61,119 nt of DNA from Deltaproteobacteria bacterium (lineage in GTDB: Bacteria > Myxococcota_A > Polyangia > Haliangiales > Haliangiaceae), in assembly GCA_029565465.1 (NCBI GenBank), contig JAKQOD010000652.1, positions 1 to 61,119 on the forward strand. Direction: 5' to 3'. Below are positions 39,749 to 60,135 of the stretch, one piece after another. The position numbers and the translations under genes are program-made. The notes under the pieces are model-generated. The model saw nothing but the letters and a program-made list of their open reading frames with translations, ran no database searches and was not told the DNA's origin. The first letter of the stretch is position 1. Each line of letters begins with the position of its first letter.

Positions 39749-40437
39749 ATAGCGAGTGGGTTCGACTCTATGTCACGGTGGAAGGCCCCACCGAAAAGAA
39801 GTTTGCCGATGAAACCTTGTGCCCTCACTTGGCGCTTTTTTCCATCGATCTTCGCCCGCGCATCGTGATCACGAACCGCAAGCTGGGCGCCCGCGGCGGC
39901 GGCCAATACTATGAAACGATTCAAGGCGACCTCGCGCGGCTGATGCGTGAAGACGCTAGCAGTAAAGCGCGCTTTTCAACCATGGTCGATTTGTATGCAC
40001 TTCCGCTTCACTTTCCTGGCAAGGCCGACGCGGAGCGCATGACCGAAGCGGTAACGAAGGTTGAACACTTGGAGGCTGCTTGGGCGACAGCCGTCGCAGA
40101 CCGCCGATTTATTCCGTTCATCCAGCTTCATGAATTCGAAGCGCTGCTTTATTGCGATTTAGCGGAGCTAGAAAAGCGCATCGAAAACGCCACCGCTGGC
40201 ATCACCGCGCTCCGTCGAGAAGTTGGCCACTTGGCGCCGGAGGCGATCAACGAAGGCCCTACTACTGCACCGAGTAAGCGCATCATTCGCCATGTGCCTG
40301 CTTATCAATTCAACAAGCCACGTGTTGGGGCCCCCGCCGCATCCGCAATCGGTCTTTCCGTGCTGCGCCAGAAGTGCCCACATTTCAGTCAATGGATCAC
40401 AAAGCTTGAGAACCTAGGTTCGCCGATCCAGGCGTAG
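39745..40437 (+). CDS. DUF4276-like protein (Toprim-like acidic motifs?)
   Basis: TTG start overlapping the ATPase stop (TTGA). RLYVTVEGPTEKKFADE near the N-terminus, MVDLYALP, FIPFIQLHEFEALLYCD. This matches my recollection of DUF4276, which is typically paired with an AAA ATPase. Confidence 0.7.
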   Translation: MNSEWVRLYVTVEGPTEKKFADETLCPHLALFSIDLRPRIVITNRKLGARGGGQYYETIQGDLARLMREDASSKARFSTMVDLYALPLHFPGKADAERMTEAVTKVEHLEAAWATAVADRRFIPFIQLHEFEALLYCDLAELEKRIENATAGITALRREVGHLAPEAINEGPTTAPSKRIIRHVPAYQFNKPRVGAPAASAIGLSVLRQKCPHFSQWITKLENLGSPIQA

Positions 40438-40461
40438 CAACGGCGAGCGCAACTGTCCGGA

Positions 40462-40482
40462 CTTTCCGGATAGTTCGAACCA
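40462..40482. repeat. Copy 1 of a 21-bp direct repeat containing the palindrome GTTCGAAC
   Basis: CTTTCCGGATAGTTCGAACCA. The partner at 40727-40747 is ATTTCCGAATAGTTCGAACCA (19/21 identical). Confidence 0.8.
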
Positions 40483-40535
40483 AAGGAAATTGCACGGGTT
40501 CTTATTAGGTGGTGCCCATCAACGAGCATCCTGCG

Positions 40536-40562
40536 AATTGTGCAAGCACCACTTGCACAATT
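40536..40562. promoter_or_regulatory. Perfect 11-bp inverted repeat with a 5-nt loop, in the hsdR leader
   Basis: AATTGTGCAAG-CACCA-CTTGCACAATT. No T-tract follows, so it is an operator or RNA hairpin rather than a clear intrinsic terminator. Confidence 0.6.
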
Positions 40563-40726
40563 AGGCGGCAGGCGTGCGTCGGAGGGGCTCATCGGCTATC
40601 GCGCAGCGAGTACAGAGACGGTGTTAACCGCTCTTCAGTATGTTCCAAAATGGAACCTACTGCCGGAAACGCATTGCGGTGACAACAACACCGACGGTCG
40701 CCAACCCAAGCCGGCAACTATTAGGA

Positions 40727-40747
40727 ATTTCCGAATAGTTCGAACCA
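40727..40747. repeat. Copy 2 of the 21-bp direct repeat containing GTTCGAAC
   Basis: ATTTCCGAATAGTTCGAACCA, 85 nt upstream of the hsdR ATG. Confidence 0.8.
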
Positions 40748-40831
40748 TGGCATTGCCCGATTTGGGGGGCATCATGCGATTGCCCTCGATGGCGGTTGCT
40801 CGCCCGTCGACAACCGCCTATCGTTGAAGTG

Positions 40832-43261: not shown

Positions 43262-43325
43262 GCGCACGAGCGAGAATCAGCTTTCGAAGATGGCGCGTCG
43301 ATCGAAGGCGCAGTAAGCTTCGGCC

Positions 43326-44066
43326 GTGGTCTGGAACGCACCCGATAGGCACATTGAGACGTTTGTGCGCAACCCATTGATTCTTGTGGTTGCCGAGGCA
43401 AAGTTCGAACCGCTCCTCAAATTGGATCATCGAATTGCCGATATTCAAGATGCGCTGCGTGGCGCATTTCCGCGGTATCAGCGCGCTCCCATCAAAATGG
43501 TAGACCTTGCCCCCGATGGAATGCTTTCGGTTTTGGACGGAACGGTCCACACCTTCACTTCGTCTGATAGCGCCACTACTTTGAATTTGAGCAACAATTC
43601 ACTCTCGCTTCAAACCCGCGACTATCGCGACCGTGCGTTATTTGCCGAAGCCCTAAAAACCGGTTGGGTCGCCTTAAACGCGGCAATGCCTGGGGTCGTG
43701 CCAACTCGGCTTGGGCTTCGATATATGAATGAGTTGGTCCTCTCGACCATCGCAACGGATCTGAATCGTCAATTGACCTGGTCTGATTTGCTCAACGACT
43801 CATTGCTTGCTAGACCGTTGGGACACGCTCCGAGCGCTGTAGTGCAATCCGAAATACGAGATACTACGGCCAAAGGGGGCAACCTCACGTTCCGCTTCGC
43901 TAATCTACCGGATGGGAAATTTCGTTTAGATTACGATCGGTTCGACGAAGGGGCCTTTGAGCCAAACGATTTGTTTGCAAAGCTCTCGCACTTCGCAGAC
44001 GATATCTACGTGCTGTTCATGGCTAGCATCACCAGTGGCATGCTAGATTGGATGAAGAAGACATGA
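43326..44066 (+). CDS. Uncharacterised protein, TIGR04255-like (from memory)
   Basis: GTG start at 43326. ...FVRNPLILVVAEAKFEP... resembles the N-terminal pattern of TIGR04255-family proteins. No catalytic motif recognised. Confidence 0.6.
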   Translation: MVWNAPDRHIETFVRNPLILVVAEAKFEPLLKLDHRIADIQDALRGAFPRYQRAPIKMVDLAPDGMLSVLDGTVHTFTSSDSATTLNLSNNSLSLQTRDYRDRALFAEALKTGWVALNAAMPGVVPTRLGLRYMNELVLSTIATDLNRQLTWSDLLNDSLLARPLGHAPSAVVQSEIRDTTAKGGNLTFRFANLPDGKFRLDYDRFDEGAFEPNDLFAKLSHFADDIYVLFMASITSGMLDWMKKT

Positions 44067-44338
44067 CGTTACGTGGGCAACAATTGGGCGAACAAGTTGT
44101 TCAGGCACGCTGGATGTCGGCGCAGGACACCTCCGTGCCGCTTACCAACACGCAAGTTGCACAGTTCGCAAGTGGCACCGGCGTGAGTTGCTTTCATCAC
44201 GACTTGATTGCAGTGCCAGCGTTCCTTCGAAAAATCGCAGCGGTTCTCCCGGTGAACGAAGAAGCGGATCGAGCGCTTAACGCTGAGCTTAGCCGCGTCT
44301 ACGCAAACTTTCCGATTCGTAAAATAGTTCGCCGCTAG
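44063..44338 (+). CDS. Small hypothetical protein (91 aa)
   Basis: The ATG at 44063 overlaps the TGA of the preceding gene (ATGA). The track start at 44048 is TTG. Confidence 0.5.
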   Translation: MTLRGQQLGEQVVQARWMSAQDTSVPLTNTQVAQFASGTGVSCFHHDLIAVPAFLRKIAAVLPVNEEADRALNAELSRVYANFPIRKIVRR

Positions 44339-44349
44339 GTATCGATTTC

Positions 44350-44889
44350 ATGCCGGCGACAAACGAGCGATGGCCACCGGTCTATGATGAAAACGATCTC
44401 GAAGGCGCAATCGCTAGCGCACTGCGCCAGATCGGCAAAACGTTCTTCGAACCAACATTGCTCGATGGCTGGTGTCAAGGCGATATCGTCGGTCTAGCTG
44501 GAGCCGTGCCGATCGTTGGCCCGAACGGTGAAGTTAGTGTGCTCGACGTACCCTCATCATATTGGCTATTGCTTGGCAACAGTTGCGATCTCGACAGATC
44601 GCTCGACGAAGTGGCCTGGGCACCCGCCATTCCGCTGCTGCCATGCTCGCTGTTATCGCCACAACGCATAGCCACCATGCAAAGCTATCAAACAGTACGC
44701 ACGTTTTTTGTGCAGAGTTGGGGCGCGGAAACGGGCGACGCGTATGGCGATTTCACACTTATGGCGTCCGTTTCGAGACAGTGGCTTTTGCAACAAAAGC
44801 CCGTCGCGCGACTGCGCCAGGCAAGCTGGACACTGCTGAACGCGTGCTTGGTGCGCTACCTGGCCCGCAGCGACGGGCGCAATGACTAG
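44350..44889 (+). CDS. Hypothetical protein (179 aa)
   Basis: The ATG lies 11 nt after the previous stop. Coding-like (…WCQGDIVGLAG…WLLLGNSCDLDR…AIPLLP…). No family recognised. Confidence 0.6.
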   Translation: MPATNERWPPVYDENDLEGAIASALRQIGKTFFEPTLLDGWCQGDIVGLAGAVPIVGPNGEVSVLDVPSSYWLLLGNSCDLDRSLDEVAWAPAIPLLPCSLLSPQRIATMQSYQTVRTFFVQSWGAETGDAYGDFTLMASVSRQWLLQQKPVARLRQASWTLLNACLVRYLARSDGRND

Positions 44890-44955
44890 CACGGCCACAC
44901 GACTGTAGCCGCCAACCGTAGCGGGGCTGGGCGTTTTTTGCGTAAGCTGCGCGGC

Positions 44956-46404
44956 ATGTCACTCGGTACAACGATCAAAGGCATCCAAGACATCATGCGC
45001 AAAGACGCGGGTGTCGACGGCGACGCGCAGCGGATCAGCCAATTGGTGTGGATGATCTTTCTCAAGGTGTTTGACGACCTTGAAGAGCAGCGCGAACTCG
45101 AAGGCGATTACAAGTCGCCGATTCCGCAGAAGCTGCGCTGGCGCAATTGGGCCAAAGATGCCGAAGGCATCACGGGTGACGCGCTGGCGGACTTCATCAA
45201 CAACGACTTGTTCAAAACGCTCAAAGAGCTACCGGCCACCGGCAAAAATGCCGCGCTTGCAGGCGTTGTGCGCGGCGTGTTTGAAGATGCGTTCAACTAC
45301 ATGAAGTCGGGCACGCTGATTCGCCAAGTGGTGAACAAGCTCAACGAGATTGATTTCAATCGCTCGTCAGACCGCCACGAGTTTGGCGATGTCTACGAAA
45401 AGCTGCTGTCTGACCTGCAAAACGCAGGTAATGCTGGCGAGTTTTATACGCCGCGCGCAGTGACCCAATTCATCGTTGACCAAGTGGACCCGCAGCTCGG
45501 CGAAAAGATCCTCGACCCAGCCTGTGGCACCGGTGGCTTTTTGACCTGTGCCATCGAGCACGTGCGCGGCAAATACGTCAAAACCGCAAAGCAGGAAACC
45601 ACCCTGCAAGACAGCATCTTTGGCGTCGAGAAAAAGCCGCTACCGCACTTGTTGTGCGTGACCAACATGATGTTCCACGGCATCGAAGTGCCGTCGCAGA
45701 TTCGCCACGACAACACGCTGGCGCGGCCACTGCGTGACTACGGCGCCAAAGACAAAGTGGATGTCATTATTACCAATCCGCCGTTTGGTGGCATGGAAGA
45801 AGACGGCATCGAAAACAATTTCCCCGCCGCGTTTCGCACGCGCGAGACTGCCGACTTGTTCTTGGTGTTGCTCATCACCTTGCTCAAGCCCGGCGGCCGC
45901 GCCGCCCTGGTCTTGCCCGATGGCACGCTGTTTGGTGAAGGCATCAAAACCCGCATCAAAGAAAAGCTCCTCGAAGAATGTAACTTGCACACCATTGTGC
46001 GGCTGCCTAAAGGCGTGTTTGCGCCTTACACCGGCATCAAAACCAACTTGTTGTTCTTCACCAAAGGTGAGCCAACCAAACACGTTTGGTTCTACGAACA
46101 CCCGTACCCTGCTGGCGCCAAAAGCTATTCCAAAACCAAGCCCATGCGCATCGATGAGTTTGCGCCCGAGAAAAAGTGGTGGAACAAGCGCAAAGAATCC
46201 GACCAAGCCTGGAAAGTTAGCCTCGCCGACATCCAAGCCCGAGGCTACAACCTCGATTGCAAAAACCCACGCGCCGTCGAAGAAGGCGCTGGCGATCCCG
46301 ACGAGCTTTTGGCTCAGTATCAACTGGCGGTCGCCGAGGCTGCGAAAGTCAGGGAGATGCTGAAGGAGGAATTGCGGAAGGCGATTGAGGGAGGTGGGAA
46401 GTGA
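44956..46404 (+). CDS. hsdM: Type I restriction-modification system, M subunit (N6-adenine DNA methyltransferase)
   Basis: ATG at 44956: MSLGTTIKGIQDIMRKDAGVDGDAQRISQLVWMIFLKVFDD (HsdM N-domain). GEFYTPR, ILDPACGTGGFL (SAM motif I), IITNPPFGG (motif IV). Confidence 0.92.
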   Translation: MSLGTTIKGIQDIMRKDAGVDGDAQRISQLVWMIFLKVFDDLEEQRELEGDYKSPIPQKLRWRNWAKDAEGITGDALADFINNDLFKTLKELPATGKNAALAGVVRGVFEDAFNYMKSGTLIRQVVNKLNEIDFNRSSDRHEFGDVYEKLLSDLQNAGNAGEFYTPRAVTQFIVDQVDPQLGEKILDPACGTGGFLTCAIEHVRGKYVKTAKQETTLQDSIFGVEKKPLPHLLCVTNMMFHGIEVPSQIRHDNTLARPLRDYGAKDKVDVIITNPPFGGMEEDGIENNFPAAFRTRETADLFLVLLITLLKPGGRAALVLPDGTLFGEGIKTRIKEKLLEECNLHTIVRLPKGVFAPYTGIKTNLLFFTKGEPTKHVWFYEHPYPAGAKSYSKTKPMRIDEFAPEKKWWNKRKESDQAWKVSLADIQARGYNLDCKNPRAVEEGAGDPDELLAQYQLAVAEAAKVREMLKEELRKAIEGGGK

Positions 46405-47939
46405 GCTCGATCGATGCCTTCATCGACTTGATAGCGCAGAGCAACGACGTTTCCATTGTTCGGCGGGCAATGCACGACATTGCGATACTAGGACGCCTGA
46501 CAAATGACGCAGACGCACAACGGCCGATCGCCACGCAAGGCAGTGCAGGCGACCCCGCAATTCCTGAAGACTGGCAGTGGAGTGTGCTCGAAGACGTTAC
46601 AACCCGTGTGCATTACGGCTACACCGCGTCGGCGTCACGAACTAAGTCCGACGCAAAAATGCTGCGCATCACCGATATTCAAGATGACCGCGTTAATTGG
46701 GACACCGTTCCATACTGCGATATCGATGCAGAACGCGCGGAAAATTATTCGCTCGAGAACGGCGACCTGCTTATCGCAAGAACTGGCGGTACGATAGGCA
46801 AGACGTACCTAGCGGAAGGCATCGATTGCCGCGCGGTCTTTGCCTCGTATTTAATTCGCGCCACGCCGAACCATCGTGTGTTGCCGCGGTTTTTGAAGGC
46901 CTATACCTCAACGTCGCTATACTGGCAGCAGCTCTACGCTGGAGCCGCCGGGACTGGCCAACCTAACGTAAATGCTTCCACGCTAAAAAAGCTACGCATC
47001 CCCCTGCCGCCGCTTGCCGAGCAGAAGCGCATCGTGGCCAAAGTCGATCAGCTCATGGCCTTGTGCGATGAATTAGAAGCAAAACAAAACGCACAGCGCC
47101 AACTCGGCACTCGCCTCACCCGCTCCGCCCTCGACGCCCTCACAACAGCCACCACCCCCGACGAATTCACCACCGCCTGGCACCGAATTTGGCAGAACTT
47201 TGAAACGTTTGTAGCGAAACCCTCCGACGTTAATATTCTGCGTACACTAATTTTGTCATTGGCCGCATCAGGCAAGTTGATAGTCACCCCCAACCAAAGC
47301 AAACGTACGACACTGACGCCAGGATTGGCTTTTTCAATTCCGGATCACTGGCAGTGGACCACGGTTGGCAACGCCGGAGAATTAAAGCTGGGGAGGCAGC
47401 GTGCGCCAAGCAATCACCACGGCTCAAATATGGTGCCGTATCTGCGGGTCGCAAACGTCCATGAAAACCGATTGGCGCTCGATGATATTTTGGAAATGCA
47501 CTTTGAGCCAGAAGAGGCGAAGAGATTTGAACTCAAGCCCATGGATGTTCTCCTAAATGAAGGTCAAAGCTACGAACTGATTGGTCGGCCTGCGCTCTAT
47601 CGAGGAGAAATCCCCGGAGCATGCTTTCAAAACACCCTCATCAGATTCCGCGCACATGAAAACGTGGACCCGGAGTTCGCGCTTATCGTTTTTCGTGCCT
47701 ATTTGCGAATTGGGAGATTCATGAAAGAAGCGCAACAAACGACCAACATCGCGCACCTCAGCGCGGGACGATTGGCGGCGATCGAATTCCCGTTGCCGAC
47801 TCTTATGGAGCAGCGTGCAATCGTGGCCAAAGTTGCTCACCTAGCAAACATCTGCGACGAGCTCGAGGCAAAGTTGCAAAGCACAGAAGAAAAGGGCGGG
47901 AAACTAGCTGCCGCGCTCGTTCAGCAACTAGTTGTATAG
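46401..47939 (+). CDS. hsdS: Type I restriction-modification system, S (specificity) subunit
   Basis: GTG start overlapping the hsdM stop (GTGA). Two target-recognition domains, each followed by a conserved helix: LPPLAEQKRIVAKVDQLMALCDELEAK and LPTLMEQRAIVAKVAHLANICDELEAK. Confidence 0.9.
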   Translation: MSSIDAFIDLIAQSNDVSIVRRAMHDIAILGRLTNDADAQRPIATQGSAGDPAIPEDWQWSVLEDVTTRVHYGYTASASRTKSDAKMLRITDIQDDRVNWDTVPYCDIDAERAENYSLENGDLLIARTGGTIGKTYLAEGIDCRAVFASYLIRATPNHRVLPRFLKAYTSTSLYWQQLYAGAAGTGQPNVNASTLKKLRIPLPPLAEQKRIVAKVDQLMALCDELEAKQNAQRQLGTRLTRSALDALTTATTPDEFTTAWHRIWQNFETFVAKPSDVNILRTLILSLAASGKLIVTPNQSKRTTLTPGLAFSIPDHWQWTTVGNAGELKLGRQRAPSNHHGSNMVPYLRVANVHENRLALDDILEMHFEPEEAKRFELKPMDVLLNEGQSYELIGRPALYRGEIPGACFQNTLIRFRAHENVDPEFALIVFRAYLRIGRFMKEAQQTTNIAHLSAGRLAAIEFPLPTLMEQRAIVAKVAHLANICDELEAKLQSTEEKGGKLAAALVQQLVV

Positions 47940-47981: not shown

Positions 47982-49568
47982 TCATGGCGTTGCAGGTTTA
48001 ACAATATCGATCAGACAGACCGACACCCTGTAGTTACTATTCTTCAATTGTCGTGCCGCGTTCTTCAATACTACACGACTAAAGAACGGCAGCAATCTCG
48101 ACAGTTTTGTCGTCGATGTGTGCCGTGCAATGATAGCGTACACAACTTCAAATTCGGTCGTATCAATCGCTTGCACAAACGCGTCATCGAACTGCGTTGG
48201 CAAGAGCCCGCGCACCTTGGAACGAAAGCTCTCGTCCTCTTGCATACTAGTAGCCGACAGCAATCCCTGCTGGAACAGGTGACTCAACGTACTCGATGAC
48301 GTACCGCGTTTGACATGAATCATTTCCCTTGATGGCGAGTAGAGATCGCAAAACTCAAGCCTACTTCTGCCCCCGCCGTACACGATCGATCGCGCATCAG
48401 CGCACTGGTATCCAAGCTCTTTCTCGATTCGCTTATTGTACTTACCTTCAACTTCTTTGTGTTTAGCCGACGGCAGCGGTTTCTTTACCAATAGTTTATC
48501 GACGGCCTTGTTTACCTTTTGCACAAAGTTGCGCTCTACTTCGAACCACGTGCCGTTCGACAAAATAGACGTATTCACGTCGTCGCTAATTTCGCAATGC
48601 AACGATTTATACAGCGACCATTTCTTCACACAGTCACCATTGCCATCGAAGCCATAAAGATGGCGGCGCTTGAGAAATGCAACGCTAGTCTTGCTGGAGT
48701 CAGCCTCCAGCTCCTGCAGCAGGTCGTCGATTGAAGGATCAGCGCTTAACGTCGTGGGTGGCTGGTCAAACGCAAAGCCCTCAATCTCCTTCCAATTGAT
48801 CACTTCTGGTGGCCCAAGCCACATACCTTTCGTCTCTCGGTCGTTGAGTTTGGCAATCAACTCCGCGTCAAGCGATTCGATTTTTTGGGGATCGAGCACT
48901 TCCGAAATCTGATCAATACCATCGAACTTTTCTTTATATGCTTCCGATTCGAATTGCTGCAGATATAGGCCCAGCAGGAGCGGCAAACTCGATAGCTCCG
49001 TGCGGGCACGAATAGCCAGCGGGCCCTTGCCCACCATAAACACGCCTAACTTTGGATCCGCCGGTTGGCCGCTAATTGCACGTACGACTTCTTGCTCGTA
49101 ATCGATACCAAACTGACGGATTGGCCCGTGTTGAACGGACTGAGTTTGTTTGTGATTCGCAATTGCTTCCATGGATGTCACATTCACTGATCGAATGGCC
49201 GCTTCGGCGATCGAGTTCAGTGTCACGCGAAGCCCAAATTTCTCCTCGGCAACATCTTCACTTAGCAGCGTCCAGCCGTAACCAAACGTAACCGCGAACC
49301 ATCGCCCAGAGTTTTTCACCAATAGGACCGCAGAGTGACTACGATTTTTCAGCGTTGGGAACTTTAGAACATACGGTTTGAACATCGCCGCCCATGACGG
49401 CTCCCTGTCTGCTGCGAGCGCCATATACAACGTACCGATATAATGCTCGCCATCCACTACATCCATCTTCTTCAGGCCAGCTTGGCCTTTTAGGATGTGC
49501 TTGGGGTCAGTACCCTGCTTCACCAAATGAATCGTTAAACCAACCAGCGGCAGCTTCTTCTTCGACAT
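47982..49568 (-). CDS. TIGR04141 / DUF6119-like 'sporadically distributed' protein
   Basis: ATG at 49568, preceded by AGGAGG 7 nt upstream. MSKKKLPLVGLTIHLVKQG..., AVLLVKNSGRWFAVTFGYGWTLL, EKFGLRVTLNS, IRQFGIDYEQEVVRAISG. These match my recollection of the TIGR04141 family. Confidence 0.6.
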   Translation of the reverse strand: MSKKKLPLVGLTIHLVKQGTDPKHILKGQAGLKKMDVVDGEHYIGTLYMALAADREPSWAAMFKPYVLKFPTLKNRSHSAVLLVKNSGRWFAVTFGYGWTLLSEDVAEEKFGLRVTLNSIAEAAIRSVNVTSMEAIANHKQTQSVQHGPIRQFGIDYEQEVVRAISGQPADPKLGVFMVGKGPLAIRARTELSSLPLLLGLYLQQFESEAYKEKFDGIDQISEVLDPQKIESLDAELIAKLNDRETKGMWLGPPEVINWKEIEGFAFDQPPTTLSADPSIDDLLQELEADSSKTSVAFLKRRHLYGFDGNGDCVKKWSLYKSLHCEISDDVNTSILSNGTWFEVERNFVQKVNKAVDKLLVKKPLPSAKHKEVEGKYNKRIEKELGYQCADARSIVYGGGRSRLEFCDLYSPSREMIHVKRGTSSSTLSHLFQQGLLSATSMQEDESFRSKVRGLLPTQFDDAFVQAIDTTEFEVVYAIIARHTSTTKLSRLLPFFSRVVLKNAARQLKNSNYRVSVCLIDIVKPATP

Positions 49569-49685
49569 TGCAAATCCTCCTGTGCCCGCGCGGGAATGTT
49601 GGCCCCGCCCCAAAAGGAGCCTACCAAAGCCGCCACGCGAAGTGTTTGAACTGATTCACGATGCGACCACGCATGGACGAAGGCA

Positions 49686-50162
49686 ATGTTCAGACGTGAA
49701 CGTGAGATCTTCCCACGGCGCCACCAGGATATTTCGCTTGCTAGACCCGCAAATAGGATGAGAGGGTTTGGCGTGGCCAACGGGTTGCCAAAGATTGGGC
49801 GTCGCCTGGATTCGCTGCCAGTTAGGCTCGCGTGGGTGCGAGATCTCGAATTCTTTGAGGGTGCAATTCTGTCGGAACACCAAGCACCGAATGGTGACGT
49901 TTACTTGATGAAATGGTGCGCACAAACCGGTGGCACCACGCGATGGTTAGCAACGCAAGCTGAAGCAGGCGCGATTTCCGCGTATCTCGACGGAAAACGA
50001 AGCATGTTTGATTTGTTGAATACAGACGGCGGATTCTTGGTGGATCAAGTCGACAATCAGATTGTCGCGGTTTGGTCGGTCGGCCTGGCGGAGATTCCAG
50101 AAGCATACCTACCTACACGAAACGCAATGCACGATCCAACACTGCGGCCGGTGCAACTGTAA
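49686..50162 (+). CDS. Hypothetical protein; first gene of a four-gene operon; start uncertain (49686 or 49758)
   Basis: The C-terminal ~110 aa are coding-like ([30 protein letters not shown]...). The stop lies 5 nt before the DUF5131 ATG. Confidence 0.5.
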
Positions 50163-50167
50163 CGCCC

Positions 50168-50971
50168 ATGGCGCAAGGCTCAGGCATCGAATGGACGGAG
50201 TCCACGTGGAATCCGGTGACGGGCTGCAACAAAATCAGCCCGGGCTGCAAGCATTGTTATGCGGAGCGGATGTCGGAGCGGCTGCAAGCGATGGGGCAGC
50301 CGAACTATCGCAATGGGTTTGCGCTGACGCTGCAACCGAAGATGCTGGAGCTACCGCTAGGTTGGAAAAAGCCACAGCGGATCTTTGTGAACTCGATGAG
50401 CGACTTGTTTCACAAAGCGGTGCCAGAGGCGTACATCCAACAGGTGTTTGATGTGATGCGGCGCGCGTATTGGCACCAGTTTCAAGTGTTGACGAAACGA
50501 GCGGAACGAGTGGCGGCGCTGGATGCGCACATTGATTGGCCAGCAAATGTCTGGATGGGCGTAAGCGTGGAAAATGCGGACTACGTTGACCGCATTGAGG
50601 CGTTGCGGTCGACGCGGGCGCACGTGAAGTTTCTCTCGATCGAACCTTTGCTGGGGCCGCTGCCCAAGCTCAAGCTGCGGGGCATTCACTGGGTGATCGT
50701 CGGCGGCGAATCAGGGCCCGGTGCACGGCCAATGCAGCCCGAGTGGGTTGCGGGTATTCGCGAGCAATGCATCAAAGCCAACGTGGCGTTTTTCTTTAAG
50801 CAGTGGGGCGGCACCAACAAGAAAAAGGCTGGCCGGTTGCTTGAAGGCAGAACGTGGGACGAAATGCCGACGAGCCCAGCGGTGGCGAGCATGTCCGGCA
50901 ACGATGTGGATCGAAGGCCGCTGCCCAACCGCGCGCGCCGCACAGTGCGGCTGGCGATGGCGCAGGATTGA
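50168..50971 (+). CDS. DUF5131 (phage Gp37/Gp68) family protein
   Basis: Start re-picked to the ATG at 50168: [33 protein letters not shown] (three-Cys motif at nt 50225-50257). [51 protein letters not shown]. Confidence 0.85.
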
Positions 50972-51074
50972 TTCGTCGACGGTATTGCTTTGGCGGAACG
51001 CCACTCGCGGCGCCGGGCTTACAAGAATTTCAAAACGCTTGCATGGCGGTTTGTGAAAATGCGAGGGTGTGGGC

Positions 51075-51989
51075 ATGAGTCGGCCAGCGACGGTACTTTT
51101 TGAACGGCAGCGCCAAGCGTTGTTGTTGCTCGAAGCGTTGGGTGGCGAAGTTGGCAATGTCGATTTTCAAAAGTTGCTGTTTTTGTACTGCCAAGAAAAC
51201 AGCGCGACGGCACCGTATGAGTTTGTGCCGTACAAGTTTGGAGCGTTTTCGTTCACTAGCTACGCCGACCGGCGAAAGTTGGTCGAGGGGGAATTGCTAG
51301 ATGCAGATGATTCGCAATGGCGGCTAACCGAAGCCGGCCGCACGGCCTTGAAGCGCACGGATAAGTCGGCAGCGACGGCATTTGCACAGCGGCATCGCAG
51401 TATGCGTGGCGACGCGTTGGTAGCTGCAACGTACCGACAGTTTCCGTACTATGCCACGCGCAGTGAAATCGCTGCGCGGGTGCTCGACGGCGACCGGGTG
51501 GCGCTGCAGAACATCGAACGTGCAGCGCCAAGCCCGAAGGCCACGATCGGCCGAGTCTGCACGATTGGCTACGAAGGCCGCACGCTTGAAAACTATCTAA
51601 ATGCGCTGCTGGCTGCTGGCGTGACGCTGTTGTGCGACGTGCGGCGCAATCCGATTAGTCGCAAATATGGGTTTTCCAAGAGCACGTTGGCCAATGGCTG
51701 CGCCGGCGTAGGGATCCGTTATGAACACTTGCGCGAGCTTGGCATCGACTCAGAGCAACGCCAAAGCTTGGTGACGCAAGCCGACTACGATGCGCTGTTT
51801 GCCGACTACGAGCGACACAGCTTGCCGCTGCAACGATCGTCGCTGCAGCAAATCGTGGCGTGGCTCAAGGCAGGCCAGCGTGTCGCACTGACGTGTTATG
51901 AGTCTTTGCCGCAACAGTGCCATCGGCATTGTGTGGCGGAGACACTGGAAGCAGAAATGGGCAAAAGGTTTACTGCACTGCATTTGTAG
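51075..51989 (+). CDS. Fusion protein: N-terminal domain of uncertain identity plus a C-terminal DUF488 domain
   Basis: ATG at 51075. DUF488 motifs: VCTIGYEGRT, LLCDVRRNPISRKYGFSK, IRYEHLRELG, ALTCYESLPQQCHRHCVAE. In the N-terminal ~150 aa, KLLFLYCQ...YEFVPYKFGAFS is weakly reminiscent of DUF4065/Panacea-type domains. Confidence 0.75.
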   Translation: MSRPATVLFERQRQALLLLEALGGEVGNVDFQKLLFLYCQENSATAPYEFVPYKFGAFSFTSYADRRKLVEGELLDADDSQWRLTEAGRTALKRTDKSAATAFAQRHRSMRGDALVAATYRQFPYYATRSEIAARVLDGDRVALQNIERAAPSPKATIGRVCTIGYEGRTLENYLNALLAAGVTLLCDVRRNPISRKYGFSKSTLANGCAGVGIRYEHLRELGIDSEQRQSLVTQADYDALFADYERHSLPLQRSSLQQIVAWLKAGQRVALTCYESLPQQCHRHCVAETLEAEMGKRFTALHL

Positions 51990-52016
51990 AACTGCAACAT
52001 CAACGAGGGAGTGGGT

Positions 52017-52855
52017 ATGGTGGAGGTCAAGCAAGAGCGCATTCTTGTTACGGTAAAGACGTATCCGACGCTGTCGCGCAAATACGGCGAAACGGTATGC
52101 ACCGCTGGCGTGCGCGAAGATGGCACGTGGGTACGGATGTATCCGGTGCCGTTTCGGCGCATGGACGAGGAGCAGCAATATAAGAAATATGATTGGCTGC
52201 AGTGTCGGGTGGTGCGTAGCAGCACAGACCCGCGGCCCGAAACGTATCGGCCGGTTGATGAGCGCGAGCTTGTGGCAGTCGATCATGTTGGCACCGACAA
52301 CAATTGGCGCGAGCGGCGGCGATTGCTGTTGCAGACGGCGCCGGTTTACGATCGCTTGGATGAACTGATTGCTGGCGCTAAGGCGAATGAGATTTCGCTC
52401 GCGGTGTTTCGACCAACCCGTGTGACTGGGTTTATCTGGAGCAAGAAGAACGCGACTGGGACCCGCAGCGATTGCGGCAAATGCGCGAAACCACCAACCA
52501 GCATGACCTATTCGCCGACAACTCGTGGCGAGAGACGTTTAGGGTCGTACGGAAATTACCCTACAGCTTTTCGTATCGTTTTGAAGATGCGATGGGCAAA
52601 GCGAGCGAGCTGCAAATTCTCGATTGGGAAGCCGGCGCGCTGTATTGGAAGTGCTTGAAGATGACCAGTGGCGACGAAGCAAAAGCGCTGGCCAAAGTGA
52701 AACAGAAATATTTCGAGGAGTTCCTCAAAAAAGACCTGCACTTTTACCTGGGCACTACGCAACAGTTTCATTTACGCGGCCCAAACCCGTGGGTGATCAT
52801 CGGTGTGTTGCCGATACCGCATACGGTTACTGAGCCGCAAATGGCGTTGTTCTGA
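52017..52855 (+). pseudogene. Uncharacterised conserved-looking gene interrupted by a 1-nt frameshift near 52436-52441
   Basis: ATG at 52017, 7 nt after GAGGGAG. Frame 0 reads MVEVKQERILVTVKTYPTLSRKYGETVCTAGV...ISLAVFRPTRVTGFIW and then degenerates. The other frame is open from 52391 and reads ...LEQEERDWDPQRLRQMRETTNQHDLF...GPNPWVIIGVLPIP to the stop at 52855. Restoring one G in TGG(G)AG joins them into ~280 aa. Confidence 0.6.
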
Positions 52856-53049
52856 GCGCAATGTCGTGAGCGGGCTGAAGCGCGTTGCGAAAGGCCCGAT
52901 TCGGCGACAATGTCACTTCGGCGGACCGCCACGCGGCGCTTGCTTCCTTGTACCGGTGCACCGGGCGCCACCGCATGCGCGGGACCGGCCGCATTCAACA
53001 ATGTTCGATTTGTTGTAACATTTGGGGCCCAACGTCGCTCTGCTTCATT

Positions 53050-53697
53050 GTGACCCCATACTTGACCAAACTAGCTGAGCCCCACAACGCCACAGATCTT
53101 GAGCTGGTCGCAGCTGTATGCGCAGGTGACCGCGTTGTGTTCGAAAAGTTGGTACAACAGCACAACCAACGGCTCTATCGCGTAGTTCGCGCGGTCCTGC
53201 GCAGCGACAACGATGCAGAGGACGCACTCCAACAAACCTGGTTGGTGATCTATAGAAACTTGGCAAGCTTTCGCGGTGAGGCCGCTTTTTCCACATGGGC
53301 CACACGCATCGCAGCGCGCACCGCGATTGCGTTAGCACACAAAATCCCCGCGATCGCAGAGGTGGAGGACATGGTTGATGCCCGCGAAACACCCGAAGCA
53401 ATGACGGCGCGTTACCAGCTAGGCAGCTTGTTCGAAAAGCTCCTTGCGCAACTACCGCAAGGGCACCGAGAGGTGTTGGTGCTGCGCGACGTGATGGAAA
53501 TGGACACGGCAGAAACTGCCATCTGTTTGCAGATTTCCGAAGCAGCAGTCAGAGTCAGGCTCCATCGTGCGCGCGCCGACATCGCTGCGCTATTGACTAC
53601 CAGTTTAGCGCATGACGCCCAAGCTGTATATGCGTTTGACGGTGCACGTTGTGCTCGCATCACTGCGTTTGTCATGCGCGCCGTCGAATCTTTGTAA
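53050..53697 (+). CDS. ECF-type RNA polymerase sigma-70 family factor
   Basis: GTG start at 53050 chosen because the upstream part of the track ORF is not protein-like. Region 2: LVAAVCAGDRVVFEKLVQQHNQRLYRVVRAVLRSDNDAEDALQQTWLVIYRNLASFRGEAAFSTWATRIA. Region 4: LPQGHREVLVLRDVMEMDTAETAICLQISEAAVRVRLHRAR. Confidence 0.8.
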   Translation: MTPYLTKLAEPHNATDLELVAAVCAGDRVVFEKLVQQHNQRLYRVVRAVLRSDNDAEDALQQTWLVIYRNLASFRGEAAFSTWATRIAARTAIALAHKIPAIAEVEDMVDARETPEAMTARYQLGSLFEKLLAQLPQGHREVLVLRDVMEMDTAETAICLQISEAAVRVRLHRARADIAALLTTSLAHDAQAVYAFDGARCARITAFVMRAVESL

Positions 53698-53727
53698 CAG
53701 TTCGGCGCAACGCCCGCTCTACTGTGC

Positions 53728-54165
53728 ATGCGATACATTATGTTTCCTATTCTAATAAGCTCGATGGTTTCCTGCGCGAGCACTCCAACAGCCAATCCGA
53801 GCCCCGCAATCACGCACACCAATGACGGTGCGCTAGCCCAAATTGACCAAGGCAAAAAGCTCTACGTTCAATACTGCGCAGGCTGCCATGGCAATGGCGG
53901 CGAGGGCACGGCAAAAGCTCCGCCCGTTGTTGGGGCCGGCGCCTTCCCTTTGGTGGCAGCAACCGATGCCAAGCGGAATGTCCCATTCCATACAGCCGCT
54001 GATGTGTTTACGTGGACCGTTAAGCACATGCCCGCAGATGCGCCAGGCTCGCTGTCGACGGAGCAATACTTGGCGATCTTCGCGTTTGATCTAACCGCCA
54101 ATGGTGTGAAACTTTCGGCTCCACTCGATGCGGCAAAAGCAGCGGCGATCGTTTTGCACCCCTAG
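53728..54165 (+). CDS. c-type cytochrome (class I), lipoprotein
   Basis: MRYIMFPILISSMVSCAS (lipobox). Haem-binding CAGCHG (CxxCH) and a distal Met context TVKHMPAD. Confidence 0.8.
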   Translation: MRYIMFPILISSMVSCASTPTANPSPAITHTNDGALAQIDQGKKLYVQYCAGCHGNGGEGTAKAPPVVGAGAFPLVAATDAKRNVPFHTAADVFTWTVKHMPADAPGSLSTEQYLAIFAFDLTANGVKLSAPLDAAKAAAIVLHP

Positions 54166-54177
54166 TTCAGGTGATAC

Positions 54178-54774
54178 ATGACTATCGCTAACAATCCTAA
54201 GGCGCTCGCTTTGTTTGAAACCGCCTATGAAACGTTGCTAAGTGGCATGAGTGAACTAGGCTTCAACATTACTGATGCAAACTTCGATGGTACAGCCAAG
54301 CGGGCAGCAAAAGGTTTTCACGCGTTGGTGCTAGATCAATCGCAGACGAGTGTTGCGATCGATGAAATGTTGGCGACTTGTTTTCCAGCGAAATTTCGAG
54401 ACATGGTGGTATCGAAACACAATGTTGCATTTGGCTTATGCCCACATCATCTGTTGCCAGTGATCTACAAAATTTCGGTCGCCTACTTGCCGCAGCAACG
54501 CGTAATAGGTCTCTCCAAGATTTCGCGCTTGGTACGCATGCTGGCGCGCGCGCCAGTGTTGCAAGAAGACCTGACCGAGGATCTGGCGAATCTATTCCAT
54601 ACCCGATTGGCGAGCGATGGGTCTGCGGTTTTCGTTGAAGGAATGCATTTATGTATGGCGGCGCGCGGAGTTGGCGCACATGAGGCGCGGCTATCGACAA
54701 CCGCGGTCCGTGGGAAGCTGGCCGAGCCGGCTTTGCGCCAAGAGTTTATGAAACTCGCGACGACGGTACCTTAG
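54178..54774 (+). CDS. folE: GTP cyclohydrolase I (FolE) family protein, divergent active-site motif
   Basis: FGLCPHHLLPV (canonical is CEHH), RVIGLSKISRLVRMLARAPVLQEDLT, VFVEGMHLCMAARGV. The order and spacing match the FolE T-fold. Confidence 0.75.
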   Translation: MTIANNPKALALFETAYETLLSGMSELGFNITDANFDGTAKRAAKGFHALVLDQSQTSVAIDEMLATCFPAKFRDMVVSKHNVAFGLCPHHLLPVIYKISVAYLPQQRVIGLSKISRLVRMLARAPVLQEDLTEDLANLFHTRLASDGSAVFVEGMHLCMAARGVGAHEARLSTTAVRGKLAEPALRQEFMKLATTVP

Positions 54775-54861
54775 ATGATCTACTAGCTCGGCGTTGGTAA
54801 GCCACGACCGCGCCAAGCGTAGCAAGCTCATTCAACGAAGGAACATGCTAGCGTGCGGACA

Positions 54862-55860
54862 ATGAAGCGCTTTTTGCTGTTGCTGTTCGTATTGCTGTTG
54901 GAGCCAGGTTGTAAGAACGCAAAATTGCTACAGACAGCGGCGCCCCCTGCTACGCCAGTGACGGACGCACGTACGGTAGACCCTTGGTCGATTCCCGACG
55001 CGTTCATGCGAACTGAAATGTTCGAGGTTGCGCGCAGCAGGTTTACGACCAAAATATTGCAGCAAAAAAAAAAGAATCAAGCGGTTGATGTGCCACCGCC
55101 GCACACGCTGCAACAAATTTCTTACCGTGGGCCTCTCGGGGAAATGGCCGCGTACGTAAGCCCGGATCCGAACGATGGACGCAAGCATCCCGCGATTATT
55201 TGGCTCATCGGCGGTTTTTCAACAAGCATCAGCAAAGAAGCGTGGATGAAATCGCCACCGAGCAACGACCAATCAGCGGCAGCGTTTTGGCGCGCTGGCG
55301 TAATCACCATGTACCCATCGATGCGCGGCGGGAATAAGAATCCTGGCTACAAAGAGAATTTGTACGGCGAAGTCGACGACGTTGGCGCGGCCTACCAAAA
55401 ACTTGCAGCTTTGCCGTATGTTGATGCTAATCGAATCTTCCTCGGGGGCCACAGCGTGGGCGGCACCCTCGCGCTGCTTGTGGCCGAAGCCTATCCACAT
55501 TTCCGAGCGACGTTTGCGTTTGGAGCTGCGGAGCGTTTCCGCGACTGGGGGCCCGACAATGCTGGCTTTGATTTCGGCGATGCCACGGAACATCTGATGC
55601 GAGCGCCGATCGAATGGCTGCATAGTTTGCGAAGTCCAACCTACATTGCTGAAGGTGAAGGTGGCAACGGCAGCGCAATCAGCTCCTTTACATCGCAAAA
55701 TCGAAATCCGTTGGTACACACGCTGCTCTTGAAAGACCACGATCACGTAACGTATTTGTTTCGAGCCATGACGTTTCTTGCAAACAAAATTCTCGCCGAC
55801 TCCGGCACGGGTGCGTTCAGCTTCGATATCGCCGAACTTGGCGTTGCCGTCGCACCGTAG
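54862..55860 (+). CDS. Secreted alpha/beta hydrolase (S9/dienelactone-hydrolase-like), lipoprotein
   Basis: ATG at 54862: MKRFLLLLFVLLLEPGCKN (lipobox). HPAIIWLIGGF, nucleophile elbow FLGGHSVGGTLA, and a late DHDHV. Confidence 0.7.
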   Translation: MKRFLLLLFVLLLEPGCKNAKLLQTAAPPATPVTDARTVDPWSIPDAFMRTEMFEVARSRFTTKILQQKKKNQAVDVPPPHTLQQISYRGPLGEMAAYVSPDPNDGRKHPAIIWLIGGFSTSISKEAWMKSPPSNDQSAAAFWRAGVITMYPSMRGGNKNPGYKENLYGEVDDVGAAYQKLAALPYVDANRIFLGGHSVGGTLALLVAEAYPHFRATFAFGAAERFRDWGPDNAGFDFGDATEHLMRAPIEWLHSLRSPTYIAEGEGGNGSAISSFTSQNRNPLVHTLLLKDHDHVTYLFRAMTFLANKILADSGTGAFSFDIAELGVAVAP

Positions 55861-57213: not shown

Positions 57214-60135
57214 CTACGGCGCACAGGTATACGCGCCGAGATCGCCGAAGGTGTCAACAGCGAAGCCGCCCCACTCAATGGTCGGATCAAACGCATCGGT
57301 CCGGTTGTTATCGCCGATGGTGAACGCGCATTTGCGGCGCAGTGTGTGATTCAGCGTGGTCACGCCGCCGGTGCCCCAGCCCTGCGCAGGCGCTTCACCA
57401 ACGCGGCCGATAGCGTCGATGGTGACACCGCCACATTGCAGCTCCACTACATCGTCGCCGTTGAAGTTGATCACTGACGCATTGATCAGATCACAATTCG
57501 CGCCGATGGCGGTGCCGACTGACGCGGTGCACGCAACGAACACATCGTGTGCTGCGATCGTTTGCGTCAACGCCAGCGAAGTCGGGGTGATCGCACCGTT
57601 GGAATACAACCGCAGCGAACAGCCAGTGAGATTCACGGGCGTGTTAAACGGATTGGCAATTTCAACAGCCTTGTTGGTGCTGCTGCCTTCAACGTACTCG
57701 CTAAAGAACAGGGTCTCGGCGCGGCAGACTGCGTTGCAGCCGTCGAATGCCGTACCATTGCCGTCGTCGCAGGTTTCGCCGCGCGAAGCTTGGGTCACGC
57801 CGTCGCCGCACGCGTTGGTTCGTATCTCGCAAATGCGGCCAACCACGCCAGCGTCGTCGCACGCGATGTCGTTCCACTCGCCGTTGCTGACCAACTGCAA
57901 ACAATCCTGTTCGATCACGCCACCGCCATTGTCAGGCTGACCAGGCATAAAATTGCTAAAGCCAAACGTTTCGCCAGTCAGCCAAGCAAACACACCTTCC
58001 GTGGTCGCGTCGGTGCCGCCGATCCACGGCGTTTGCGCTGGGTTTTGCACCGCGGCAACCAGCGCTTGCTCAGTTGCGTTGTTGACCGTCACCAAGTGGC
58101 CACCACTCGCAGCACACGCGTTGCTGGCGGCTGCAAACGTAGTGACTTCATCGTCGAACGACACGTAACAGTCGCCGCTGTTGGCATCGCCTGCAAAGCG
58201 ATCGCCACCGACCAGCAGCGGATTGCTGGCGTTGCACACTTGAACCACAACGCACGATGAAGAGCAGCCATCGGTATTGTTGCTGTTGCCATCGTCGCAC
58301 CGCTCCAGCCCGGTTAGTACAAAACCATCGCCGCACGTCGCTGCTGCGCAGGTGTTCAAACAGGCATCGGTGTTGCTGGCATTCGCGTCGTCGCAGGTTT
58401 CGACGCCGGCGTTCACAAAACCATCGCCGCAGCTCGCTGCGGTGCAGGTGACCAAACACGCATCAGTATTGCTGCTATTACCATCGTCACACCCTTCCAC
58501 ACCAGCGTGCACAAAGCCGTCGCCGCACGTCGCTGGTTGACACGTGGTAGGGCACGCATCGGTGTTGTCGCCGTTGCCGTCGTCGCACAGTTCCACCCCA
58601 GCTTGCGCAAACCCGTCGCCGCACGTCGCAGCGGCGCACGTCGTCAAACAGGCGTCGGTATTGCTGGCATTCGCGTCGTCGCAGGCTTCGACGCCAACTT
58701 GGACAAAGCCGTCGCCGCACGCGGCTACAACACACGTGTTCAGGCAGGTGTCCGTGTTGCTGGTGTTGGCATCGTCGCAGGCTTCCGTGCCAGCACGTAC
58801 AAAGCCGTCACCACAGCGCGCAGCTTGACAAGTGCCCGGACAGGCATCTGTGTTGTCACCATTGCCGTCGTCGCACGCTTCCACGCCCGCACGCACAAAA
58901 CCGTCACCGCAGGCCGCCGCCGCGTACGTCGTCAAACACGCATCGGTATTGTCGGCATTGGCGTCGTCACACGCTTCGGTGCCGGTACGCACAAAACCGT
59001 CGCCGCAGGTCGCAACCGCGCACGTGGTCAAACACGCATCGGTATTGCTCGCATTGCCGTCGTCGCACGCTTCCACGCCGCCACGTACAAAACCGTCACC
59101 GCAAGCCGCCGCCGCGCAGGTCGTCAAACACGCATCGGTATTGCTCGCATTGCCGTCGTCACATGCTTCCACGCCGGCACGCACAAAACCGTCACCGCAG
59201 ACCGCCGCCGCGCACGTGGTCAAACACGCATCGGTGTTGTCGGCATTGCCGTCGTCACACGCCTCGGTGCCTACTTGCACAAAGCCGTCGCCACACGCTG
59301 CGACTGCACACGTGGTCAAACACGCATCGGTATTGTCGGCATTGCCATCGTCGCAGGCTTCCGTACCGGCGCGCACAAAGCCGTCGCCACACGCTGCGAC
59401 TTCGCACGTACTCAAGCACGCATCGGTATTGCTGCCATTGCCGTCGTCACACGCTTCCACGCCAACACGCACAAAGCCGTCGCCGCAGGTCGCGGCCGCA
59501 CAGGTGATCAAGCAACCGTCGGTATTGTCGGCATTGCCATCGTCACAAGCTTCCATGCCAGCACGTACAAAGCCGTCGCCACACGTTGCTGGCATACACG
59601 TCGTCAGACACGCATCGGTATTGTTGGCATTGCCGTCGTCGCACCGCTCGCCGGCTTGCAACACGCCATCGCCACACGTTGCGGCTATGCAGTTATTCCG
59701 ACAAGCATCATTGTCGATTTGATTGCCGTCATCGCAACCTTCGCCGGTTGCCACAACGCCATCGCCGCAGCTCGCAGGCACGCAGCTATTGCGACACGCG
59801 TCGGCATCAACCCGATTGCCATCGTCACATTGTTCGCCAACTTGCACCACACCGTCGCCGCACACCGACGGTTTGCAAGCATTGCTACACTTGTCAACAT
59901 CGACTTGATTGCCGTCGTCGCATTGCTCGACGCCAGCGAGCACAATGCCGTCACCACAGCGCGCTTGTTTACAACCATTGGTGCAGCCATCGGTGTCAAT
60001 CGCGTTGCCATCGTCGCATTGCTCTGTGCCGGTCGCCTCACCGTCGCCGCAGTCTTGCGCCACCGGCGCAGGACCGCAGCCCCAAAACAAGAAGGTGCAA
60101 CACCAAAGCGCAAGCGCATGGGCAACGTATTTCAT
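57214..60135 (-). CDS. Giant lipoprotein: 19 cysteine-rich repeats, a C-type-lectin-like domain, one more repeat, and a lamin-tail-like domain
   Basis: MKYVAHALALWCCTFLFWGCG (lipobox). 19 consecutive 31-32-aa CGDGF.....E.CDDGN..NTDACL.TC.... units. CTLD-like region (nt ~57829-58170): CYVSFDDEVTTFAAASNACAASGGHLVTVNNATEQALV...WIGGTDATTEGVFAWLTGE...QPDN...DCLQL...GEWNDIACD. LTD-like region (nt ~57340-57714): LFFSEYVEGSSTNKAVEIANP...DVVELQ. Confidence 0.85.
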   Translation of the reverse strand: MKYVAHALALWCCTFLFWGCGPAPVAQDCGDGEATGTEQCDDGNAIDTDGCTNGCKQARCGDGIVLAGVEQCDDGNQVDVDKCSNACKPSVCGDGVVQVGEQCDDGNRVDADACRNSCVPASCGDGVVATGEGCDDGNQIDNDACRNNCIAATCGDGVLQAGERCDDGNANNTDACLTTCMPATCGDGFVRAGMEACDDGNADNTDGCLITCAAATCGDGFVRVGVEACDDGNGSNTDACLSTCEVAACGDGFVRAGTEACDDGNADNTDACLTTCAVAACGDGFVQVGTEACDDGNADNTDACLTTCAAAVCGDGFVRAGVEACDDGNASNTDACLTTCAAAACGDGFVRGGVEACDDGNASNTDACLTTCAVATCGDGFVRTGTEACDDANADNTDACLTTYAAAACGDGFVRAGVEACDDGNGDNTDACPGTCQAARCGDGFVRAGTEACDDANTSNTDTCLNTCVVAACGDGFVQVGVEACDDANASNTDACLTTCAAATCGDGFAQAGVELCDDGNGDNTDACPTTCQPATCGDGFVHAGVEGCDDGNSSNTDACLVTCTAASCGDGFVNAGVETCDDANASNTDACLNTCAAATCGDGFVLTGLERCDDGNSNNTDGCSSSCVVVQVCNASNPLLVGGDRFAGDANSGDCYVSFDDEVTTFAAASNACAASGGHLVTVNNATEQALVAAVQNPAQTPWIGGTDATTEGVFAWLTGETFGFSNFMPGQPDNGGGVIEQDCLQLVSNGEWNDIACDDAGVVGRICEIRTNACGDGVTQASRGETCDDGNGTAFDGCNAVCRAETLFFSEYVEGSSTNKAVEIANPFNTPVNLTGCSLRLYSNGAITPTSLALTQTIAAHDVFVACTASVGTAIGANCDLINASVINFNGDDVVELQCGGVTIDAIGRVGEAPAQGWGTGGVTTLNHTLRRKCAFTIGDNNRTDAFDPTIEWGGFAVDTFGDLGAYTCAP
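58228..60054. repeat. Array of ~96-bp in-frame tandem repeats (19 cysteine-rich units), approximate bounds
   Basis: 32-aa periodicity throughout. Central units are near-identical at the DNA level and also resemble the 34484-35440 array on the same strand. Confidence 0.85.

Follow-up and report, generated by a model that had tools for sequence, protein, structure and literature searches.

A block of four genes (g1, g2, g3 and g4) was analysed in a 61,119-nucleotide (nt) stretch of DNA, hereafter the window, from a Deltaproteobacteria bacterium of the Haliangiaceae (GenBank assembly GCA_029565465.1, contig JAKQOD010000652.1). The genes g1, g2, g3 and g4 encode a small protein related to the N-terminal part of the toxin PD-T4-10B, a DUF5131 (Gp37/Gp68) protein, a DUF488 fusion protein (PDC-M19A) and its partner protein (PDC-M19B), respectively. 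The intergenic gaps are 5, 103 and 27 nt when ATG starts are used. A first-pass annotation, made from the sequence alone, had described four same-strand genes with these gaps, their protein motifs and a frameshift, all of which were found again on re-checking. The ratio of nonsynonymous to synonymous substitution rates (dN/dS) ranges from 0.04 to 0.33 across all four genes, the N-terminal part of g4 included, and indicates purifying selection; g1 to g4 are therefore real genes and not chance open reading frames (ORFs). The same annotation had proposed one undescribed four-gene system, which the results below do not uphold. The locus probably consists of two independently mobile two-gene cassettes, g1+g2 (cassette A) and g3+g4 (cassette B), lying side by side downstream of a type I restriction-modification (R-M) system (Table 1).

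The gene identities themselves divide the block. PADLOC models assign g3 and g4 to PDC-M19A and PDC-M19B, g2 to PDC-M41B and PDC-M30B, and g1 to the N-terminal third of PD-T4-10_B. Two anchored surveys were carried out, one of 80 genome loci containing g3 (Myxococcota, Verrucomicrobiota, Nitrospirota, Gemmatimonadota, Planctomycetota, Chloroflexota, Proteobacteria and other phyla) and one of the 80 closest metagenome loci by the DUF5131 protein g2. In 70 of the 80 g3-anchored loci, the gene directly after g3 on the same strand is a g4 homologue or remnant, with full length in 56; contig ends cut several of the other loci. The genes g1, g2 and DUF6119 accompany g3 in one of the 80 loci, that of the nearest relative, a Kofleriaceae metagenome-assembled genome (MAG) (L001), and no g1, g3 or g4 was found near DUF5131 in any of the 80 g2-anchored metagenome loci. 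Thus the neighbourhood analysis revealed no conserved four-gene co-occurrence, and each pair is conserved separately.

This modularity was also observed directly at the junction between the pairs. By blastn, the DNA flanking the g2/g3 junction of the window aligns with the nearest relative on either side (77% and 75%), but the relative's junction spans about 1.4 kb and carries a RhuM (PDC-S05) gene, compared with about 150 nt in the window. Synteny breaks at approximately 50870-51021 of the window and 2808-4212 of the relative's contig (L081), and RhuM lies between the cassettes in both L081 and L082. Another contig (L083) matches the window across g1 and g2 only, with 84% nucleotide identity, and contains no DUF488 gene; its DUF5131 protein is 98.3% identical in amino acids (aa) to that of L081 although the flanks are unrelated.

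Table 1. Features of the window around the four-gene block
Feature	Position	Strand	Remarks
HEC-01 A/B: AAA_21 ATPase + DUF4276 protein	38624-40437		PADLOC E 1e-130 and 1.5e-66
Type I R-M	40796-47939	+	Pfam and PADLOC matches
hsdR	40796-43261	+	type I R-M
Three genes embedded in R-M between hsdR and hsdM	43326-44889	+	same strand
hsdM	44938-46404	+	type I R-M
hsdS	46401-47939	+	type I R-M
DUF6119/TIGR04141 gene	47982-49613	-	543 aa; Pfam E 1.7e-132; NCBIfam E 4.9e-131
g1	49686-50162	+	158 aa, or 134 aa from the alternative ATG at 49758
g2, DUF5131 (Gp37/Gp68)	50168-50971 (ATG to stop)	+	Pfam PF07505 E 1.7e-104
g2/g3 junction between the two cassettes	50972-51074		103 nt
g3, PDC-M19A	51075-51989 (ATG to stop)	+	304 aa; DUF488 C-terminal
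g4, PDC-M19B	52017-52855	+	about 279 aa if intact; 1-nt deletion inside
g4 pieces	52011/52017-52658 and 52472-52855	+	two overlapping ORFs
Frameshift site in g4	52437-52439	+	GG in window, GGG in intact relative

The gene g3 matches PADLOC model PDC-M19A (PDLC04505) with an expectation value (E) of 9.1e-100, residues 11-305 being aligned with model positions 2-293 of 294. The fusion of an N-terminal domain to DUF488 proposed previously was confirmed, with Pfam DUF488 (PF04343) located at residues 173-293 (E 2.6e-26). The DUF488 motifs TIGYEGR, DVRRNP and C..E..CHRH do not vary among 18 homologues, and the best matches within this large family share an architecture of about 310 aa. An AlphaFold2 model (predicted local distance difference test score, pLDDT, 80.8) contains an N-terminal helix/strand domain, a helical linker and a C-terminal α/β domain. 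Repeated weak winged-helix matches (HemN_C, HTH_45) were obtained at residues ~50-100 of the N-terminal domain. Foldseek searches with the model returned, for the C-terminal domain, dual-specificity phosphatases (DSPs), protein tyrosine phosphatases (PTPs) and CbiL-type methylases as top matches, with probabilities of 0.97-0.99 but E of about 0.03 and TM-scores of 0.3-0.6, and comparison with viral models (BFVD) placed DUF488, DUF4326 and PTPs nearest. The model fits a winged-helix-like domain joined through a linker to a DUF488 domain with a putative phosphatase/rhodanese-like fold. In 2023, Burroughs and Aravind reportedly placed DUF488 in the RapZ-C/DUF488/DUF4326 clade of the rhodanese-phosphatase superfamily. 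The DUF488 domain of g3 keeps the family motifs and its model resembles PTP/DSP phosphatases, CbiL-type methylases, DUF488 and DUF4326, whereas the fusion to a winged helix-turn-helix (wHTH) and the obligatory g4 partner mark a specific subfamily. We know of no biochemical activity for any DUF488 member. A Panacea/SocA identity for the N-terminal domain, prompted by the motif FQKLLFLY, was considered and is not claimed, as only generic wHTH matches were obtained.

The gene g4 begins 27 nt after g3 on the same strand, and its two pieces match PADLOC model PDC-M19B (PDLC04508) at positions 2-144 and 149-263. A total of 2484 homologues of about 273 aa were found in many phyla, none of which carries a Pfam domain. 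Relatives selected from the best-scoring 120, including Myxococcota, Gemmatimonadota and Planctomycetota, show 73% mean column identity. The protein is basic (isoelectric point 8.6), rich in Trp and Arg, and soluble as judged from the lack of a hydrophobic segment. In searches of the PDB and Pfam, the only signal to recur is a weak DUF2716 match, obtained for 12 of 22 members (best E 0.0013). Of the fold searches suggested in the first-pass annotation for the uncharacterized parts, that with the N-terminal domain of g3 gave the weak winged-helix matches described above and that with g4 gave no usable match. Profile comparisons by hhalign of g4 with g3, and of each with PD-T4-10B-like proteins, revealed no relationship.

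In the window, g3 is intact and g4 is interrupted. The frameshift was seen directly by comparison with a relative from another sample (L174, 96.4% identical DNA): the window reads ATCT-GGAGCAAG where L174 reads ATCTGGGAGCAAG, a single G being missing from a GGG run. The gene of this relative is intact and encodes a 279-aa protein (L174/P0121; the intact protein P0121 is 98% identical). When one G is inserted after 52439, the window gene again encodes 279 aa, and the product aligns with homologues over residues 4-279. The deletion at 52437-52439 could be an assembly error; unless it is, the PDC-M19 module is probably inactive in this genome because of it. In the nearest relative (L001/L081, 5208-5807), g4 is truncated to 199 aa and the called DUF488 gene encodes 268 aa. 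Damage to PDC-M19B thus affects both the window and its closest relative but differs in kind (frameshift and truncation, respectively). In the g3-anchored survey, about 18 of 75 loci have a frameshifted or truncated g4 or have lost it, a count that is biased by the g3 anchoring and inflated by frameshift errors in MAGs. Such frequent disruption hints that g4 is costly.

The pair g3+g4 is tightly conserved in many phyla without DUF5131. Of the 37 loci for which both flanks are available, 8 show the order hsdM-hsdS-g3-g4-hsdR, the genes being about 10-30 nt apart. In another locus (L170), g3 and g4 are placed between the mod and res genes of a type III R-M system with overlapping ORFs. Other neighbours of the pair include DrmD, PDC-S01 and PDC-S05 (RhuM). 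Among 2.9 million viral contigs, g4 was found in four, two of which are Mu-like phages, and a full-length g3 lies directly upstream in all four (33-49% identity). A gene matching PDC-M19B (gp43, E 2.5e-48) directly follows the immunity repressor in temperate Gordonia phages of the Nymphadora group. The neighbouring gp42, a DUF488-only gene, abuts gp43 convergently and lies between the integrase and the repressor. In other actinobacteriophages, the same position holds lysogenically expressed exclusion genes (the unrelated CarolAnn 43/44). Identity of the CarolAnn gp43/44 defence system with Nymphadora gp42/43 was considered and rejected, as the former is RexAB-like and belongs to a different phage cluster.

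PDC-M19 has been catalogued as the cassette FAM_02799>>FAM_02993 in 174 genomes, as a candidate that was not tested there (Payne et al. 2024, bioRxiv 10.1101/2024.01.29.577857, supplement); PDC-M41 and PDC-M30 appear in that supplement as well. PDC-M19 was derived from genes lying inside BREX, DISARM or type I R-M systems (10.1101/2024.01.29.577857), and such embedding was reproduced independently in the present survey. By their model matches, order and strand, g3 and g4 (the latter as two pieces) are assigned to this candidate family. The window differs in that the B gene is frameshifted and in that both cassettes sit past hsdS with hsdR upstream, beside the R-M system and not between its subunit genes. 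The earlier statement that no described system has this gene set therefore fails for the parts, since g3+g4 corresponds to PDC-M19 and DUF5131 to the B component of PDC-M41/PDC-M30, but stands insofar as these are themselves predictions only. PrrC has been cited as the archetype of embedded systems (10.1101/2024.01.29.577857). Many g3+g4 relatives resemble the PrrC/EcoprrI type in forming a small accessory unit that separates hsdS from hsdR, whereas g3+g4 has no sequence or domain similarity to it and is not known to be linked to tRNA cleavage or sensing of R-M inhibition.

Cassette A contains g1 and the DUF5131 gene g2. The assignment of g2 to DUF5131, with its C-x6-C-x2-C motif, was correct in the first-pass annotation. 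PADLOC models PDC-M41B (PDLC04639) and PDC-M30B match with E of 4.2e-123 and 1.1e-116, respectively, and the NCBIfam model rSAM_mob_pairA ("radical SAM mobile pair protein A", SAM being S-adenosylmethionine) matches with E 4.9e-23, under the model's cut-off. DUF5131 has been listed as a radical-SAM subgroup (PMC9477430). Two features of the radical SAM superfamily, the three-Cys motif and a Gly-rich GGES (in VIVGGESGP), are both present in g2 and may represent the cluster and SAM sites, respectively; g2 is thus a predicted radical-SAM-type enzyme.

The usual partner of DUF5131 is TcmP, as had been supposed. In 60 of the 67 g2-anchored loci with upstream sequence, a gene of about 295 aa overlapping the DUF5131 start encodes TcmP (TIGR04474, "three-Cys-motif partner protein", E 9.9e-58), which is PDC-M41A. 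The systems PDC-M41 and PDC-M30 are composed of a TcmP-like A and a DUF5131 B component; g2 matches the B models and carries the three-Cys motif, whereas TcmP was not found in the window (best tblastn match E 2) and g1, which has no TcmP/PDC-M41A match and is unrelated to TcmP, holds its slot upstream of DUF5131. Cassette A would accordingly represent a non-canonical DUF5131 cassette in which a small protein similar to the N-terminus of PD-T4-10B has taken the place of TcmP.

The protein g1 matches PADLOC model PD-T4-10_B at positions 6-120 of 353 (E 4.5e-12), corresponding to part of the toxin only. PD-T4-10 is an E. coli toxin-antitoxin defence system in which PD-T4-10B is the toxin and acts by abortive infection (Vassallo et al. 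2022, PMC9519451). Thus, g1 is a standalone copy of the domain of about 120 aa found at the N-terminus of PD-T4-10B-like toxins (dN/dS 0.14-0.33). It differs from PD-T4-10B in lacking the C-terminal two-thirds of the toxin and in its partner, here a radical-SAM-type enzyme by prediction; no match to the antitoxin PD-T4-10A was found among the window proteins scanned. Homology of g1 begins near residue 34 and its homologues are 127-137 aa, which is nearer to the 134-aa form. Two close homologues were found in a word-indexed protein database, and an exhaustive HMMER search with the g1 core (about 120 aa) recovered 400 relatives, which are standalone, N-terminal in PD-T4-10B-like proteins of about 350 aa, or C-terminal in proteins of about 1000 aa. 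In one protein (P0322), a g1-like domain is fused to an M78 peptidase.

Pairing of g1 with DUF5131 was detected in L081, L082 and L083. Five standalone g1-like proteins elsewhere were checked and no further pair was found, four being located amid small unknown ORFs and the fifth on a single-gene contig. A general link between g1 and DUF5131 was dropped on the basis of those four small-ORF arrays. The pairing is therefore rare, though transferred as a unit. The gene order in L083 is HTH_3, CapP-like M78 peptidase, g1, DUF5131, HTH_17 and PIN. The HTH_3 and CapP-like genes (L083 1634-3784; PADLOC capP E 2.3e-33) directly precede the pair and the peptidase gene overlaps the start of g1, which suggests that g1-DUF5131 is there under CapH/CapP-type control, typical of a defence system.

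We infer a defence function, substrates and partner roles for the two cassettes as follows. PDC-M19 may be an accessory anti-phage module that as a rule either lies within R-M operons or is expressed from prophages. Its DUF488 phosphoesterase-like domain would act on a phosphate-bearing substrate, either nucleic-acid ends or a nucleotide, the wHTH would target or regulate this activity, and g4 would be a partner or effector. A combination of a glycosylase with end processing is speculation. In cassette A, g2 would apply radical-SAM chemistry to a nucleotide or a nucleic acid, and g1 would serve as adaptor or regulator. It is tentatively suggested, as a possibility on the doubtful side, that PDC-M19 is a new and widespread immune type, in which a DNA-targeted DUF488 and a partner of new fold act on nucleic-acid termini or a nucleotide signal as a back-up to R-M, and that g1+DUF5131 is an uncatalogued radical-SAM defence cassette which is CapH/CapP damage-responsive in some genomes.

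The four genes could instead work together as a single operon and so represent one undescribed system, for defence or DNA modification, that combines radical-SAM and DUF488 chemistry, as their common strand, short gaps, lack of a predicted terminator-like site and synteny (g1 to g4 plus DUF6119) in the nearest relative would allow. The two anchored surveys (1/80 and 0/80) already largely refute such a system, and together with the RhuM gene between the halves in the nearest relative, the transfer of g1+g2 alone to L083 and the occurrence of g3+g4 alone in R-M operons and phages they make it extremely unlikely. The genes could also be leftovers of a degraded prophage without current function: DUF5131 is a phage Gp37/Gp68 family, g2, g3 and g4 all match PHROG families, g4 is frameshifted, and g1-like proteins elsewhere occur within arrays of small phage-like ORFs. 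However, the scan of the flanks (38.6-53.7 kb) returned defence, R-M and sigma-factor genes but neither an integrase nor a phage structural gene, the window contains no tRNA gene, and the low dN/dS extends to the N-terminal part of g4. The carriage of g4 by four of 2.9 million viral contigs and the nesting of the same cassettes within R-M operons in many phyla also argue against a degraded prophage, which is regarded as very unlikely.

For cassette B alone, a toxin-antitoxin (TA)-like addiction pair may be considered, in which g4 is the toxin, g3 the neutraliser or regulator, and proximity to R-M reflects selfish stabilisation and not dedicated immunity. The tight coupling of two overlapping or nearly overlapping ORFs, the frequent inactivation of g4 while g3 stays intact, the wHTH of g3 (as in many antitoxins) and the precedent of PD-T4-10 for a pair that is both TA and defence would agree with this, but the g4-loss count is subject to the bias noted above and g3 keeps every conserved DUF488 motif, which suggests an active enzyme and not a mere antidote. 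A TA-like pair in place of immunity is considered rather unlikely; a TA-like activity is compatible with the accessory immune module and would leave room for a role in defence. Less probable still is a module for housekeeping or repair (e.g., for DNA-end cleaning) that lies near R-M only incidentally. Single-domain DUF488 proteins are widespread outside defence loci and, by the present count, most of the 80 loci lie outside R-M, as such a module would predict. The pair is patchily distributed among phyla (55-75% identity), however, which points to horizontal transfer. Precise nesting between R-M subunit genes with gaps of ~10-30 nt and presence in prophage lysogeny modules and as morons of Mu-like phages also argue against it, and the frequent disruption or loss of g4 in g3-anchored loci is unlike a housekeeping gene.

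Several points weigh against the interpretation as two separate, immune cassettes. About 80% of g3+g4 loci lie outside R-M operons under conservative clustering. The substrate proposed for DUF488 follows only from the fold and a computational study. For the fold and chemistry of g4, sequence and profile searches of the PDB and Pfam returned nothing meaningful, and its AlphaFold2 model (pLDDT 43.5, from a 22-sequence alignment of about 73% identity) was discarded, Foldseek matches being noise. Literature searches found no experiments on PDC-M19, PDC-M41 or any DUF5131 or DUF488 protein in defence. The g1-DUF5131 pairing appears in three lineages only. Finally, g1 to g4 could still be co-transcribed here, because the gaps of 5 and 27 nt are short and no terminator-like site is predicted between the four genes on the + strand (the promoter/terminator scan was otherwise uninformative).

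For annotation, the "operon" should be split into two units, of which g3/g4 is already recognised by PADLOC as PDC-M19 A/B and the other, in which DUF5131 has a non-canonical partner, falls outside current models. The interest lies in the PDC-M19 family and the partner swap and not in the composite locus, which is a poor test case because g4 is frameshifted. PDC-M19 is widespread, unusually conserved, found inside R-M operons of types I and III and carried by temperate phages, and so provides a well-defined target for functional work on DUF488. The replacement of TcmP by g1 and the link to CapP provide a handle on the role of the DUF5131 enzyme.

The four genes form the end of a defence island that also contains HEC-01, a complete type I R-M system and the DUF6119 gene. 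The setting in a defence island, the adjoining type I R-M (hsdM, hsdS and hsdR upstream) and the divergent TIGR04141-like gene upstream, now identified as TIGR04141/DUF6119, had all been recognised in the first-pass annotation, and all four genes have defence-type associations. TIGR04141 is a "sporadically distributed" protein family. The DUF6119/TIGR04141 gene is divergent from g1, keeps its synteny with g1-g2 in the nearest relative (L081/L082), and encodes a protein that matches phrog_18579 and no PADLOC model. Phage protection has been reported for HEC-01 representatives (literature including Payne et al. 2024, 10.1101/2024.01.29.577857). The G+C content is 0.49-0.56 over about 37-50 kb and 0.57-0.58 over the four genes, compared with ~0.58-0.62 in most of the upstream window.

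The three genes embedded between hsdR and hsdM encode a TIGR04255-family protein (246 aa, E 3.3e-24) and ORFs of 96 and 179 aa. No PADLOC match was obtained for this trio, which by the logic of guilt by embedding is an uncatalogued candidate cassette. Weak tblastn matches (E 0.011-0.044) to the relative's RhuM were detected at 40345-40746, between HEC-01B and hsdR, and may be a RhuM remnant or chance. An extracytoplasmic function (ECF) sigma factor gene comes after the block. In L174, about 240 nt beyond g4 (L174 1191-1428), a homologue of window 54963-55778 is reached (90% identity), whereas the window contains about 2.1 kb of extra DNA (52856-54962) with the ECF sigma factor gene and ORFs 53728-54165 and 54178-54774. 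From this comparison, the island is taken to have a variable right-hand border at the extra DNA. The reverse strand encodes two large proteins with Cys-rich repeats, an 868-aa protein with DUF4215 repeats and cadherin/Ig-like domains (33464-36070) and a 973-aa protein with many CGDG...CDDGN repeats (57214-60135). Such proteins are typical of Myxococcota and thus fit the Kofleriaceae affinity of the nearest relative.

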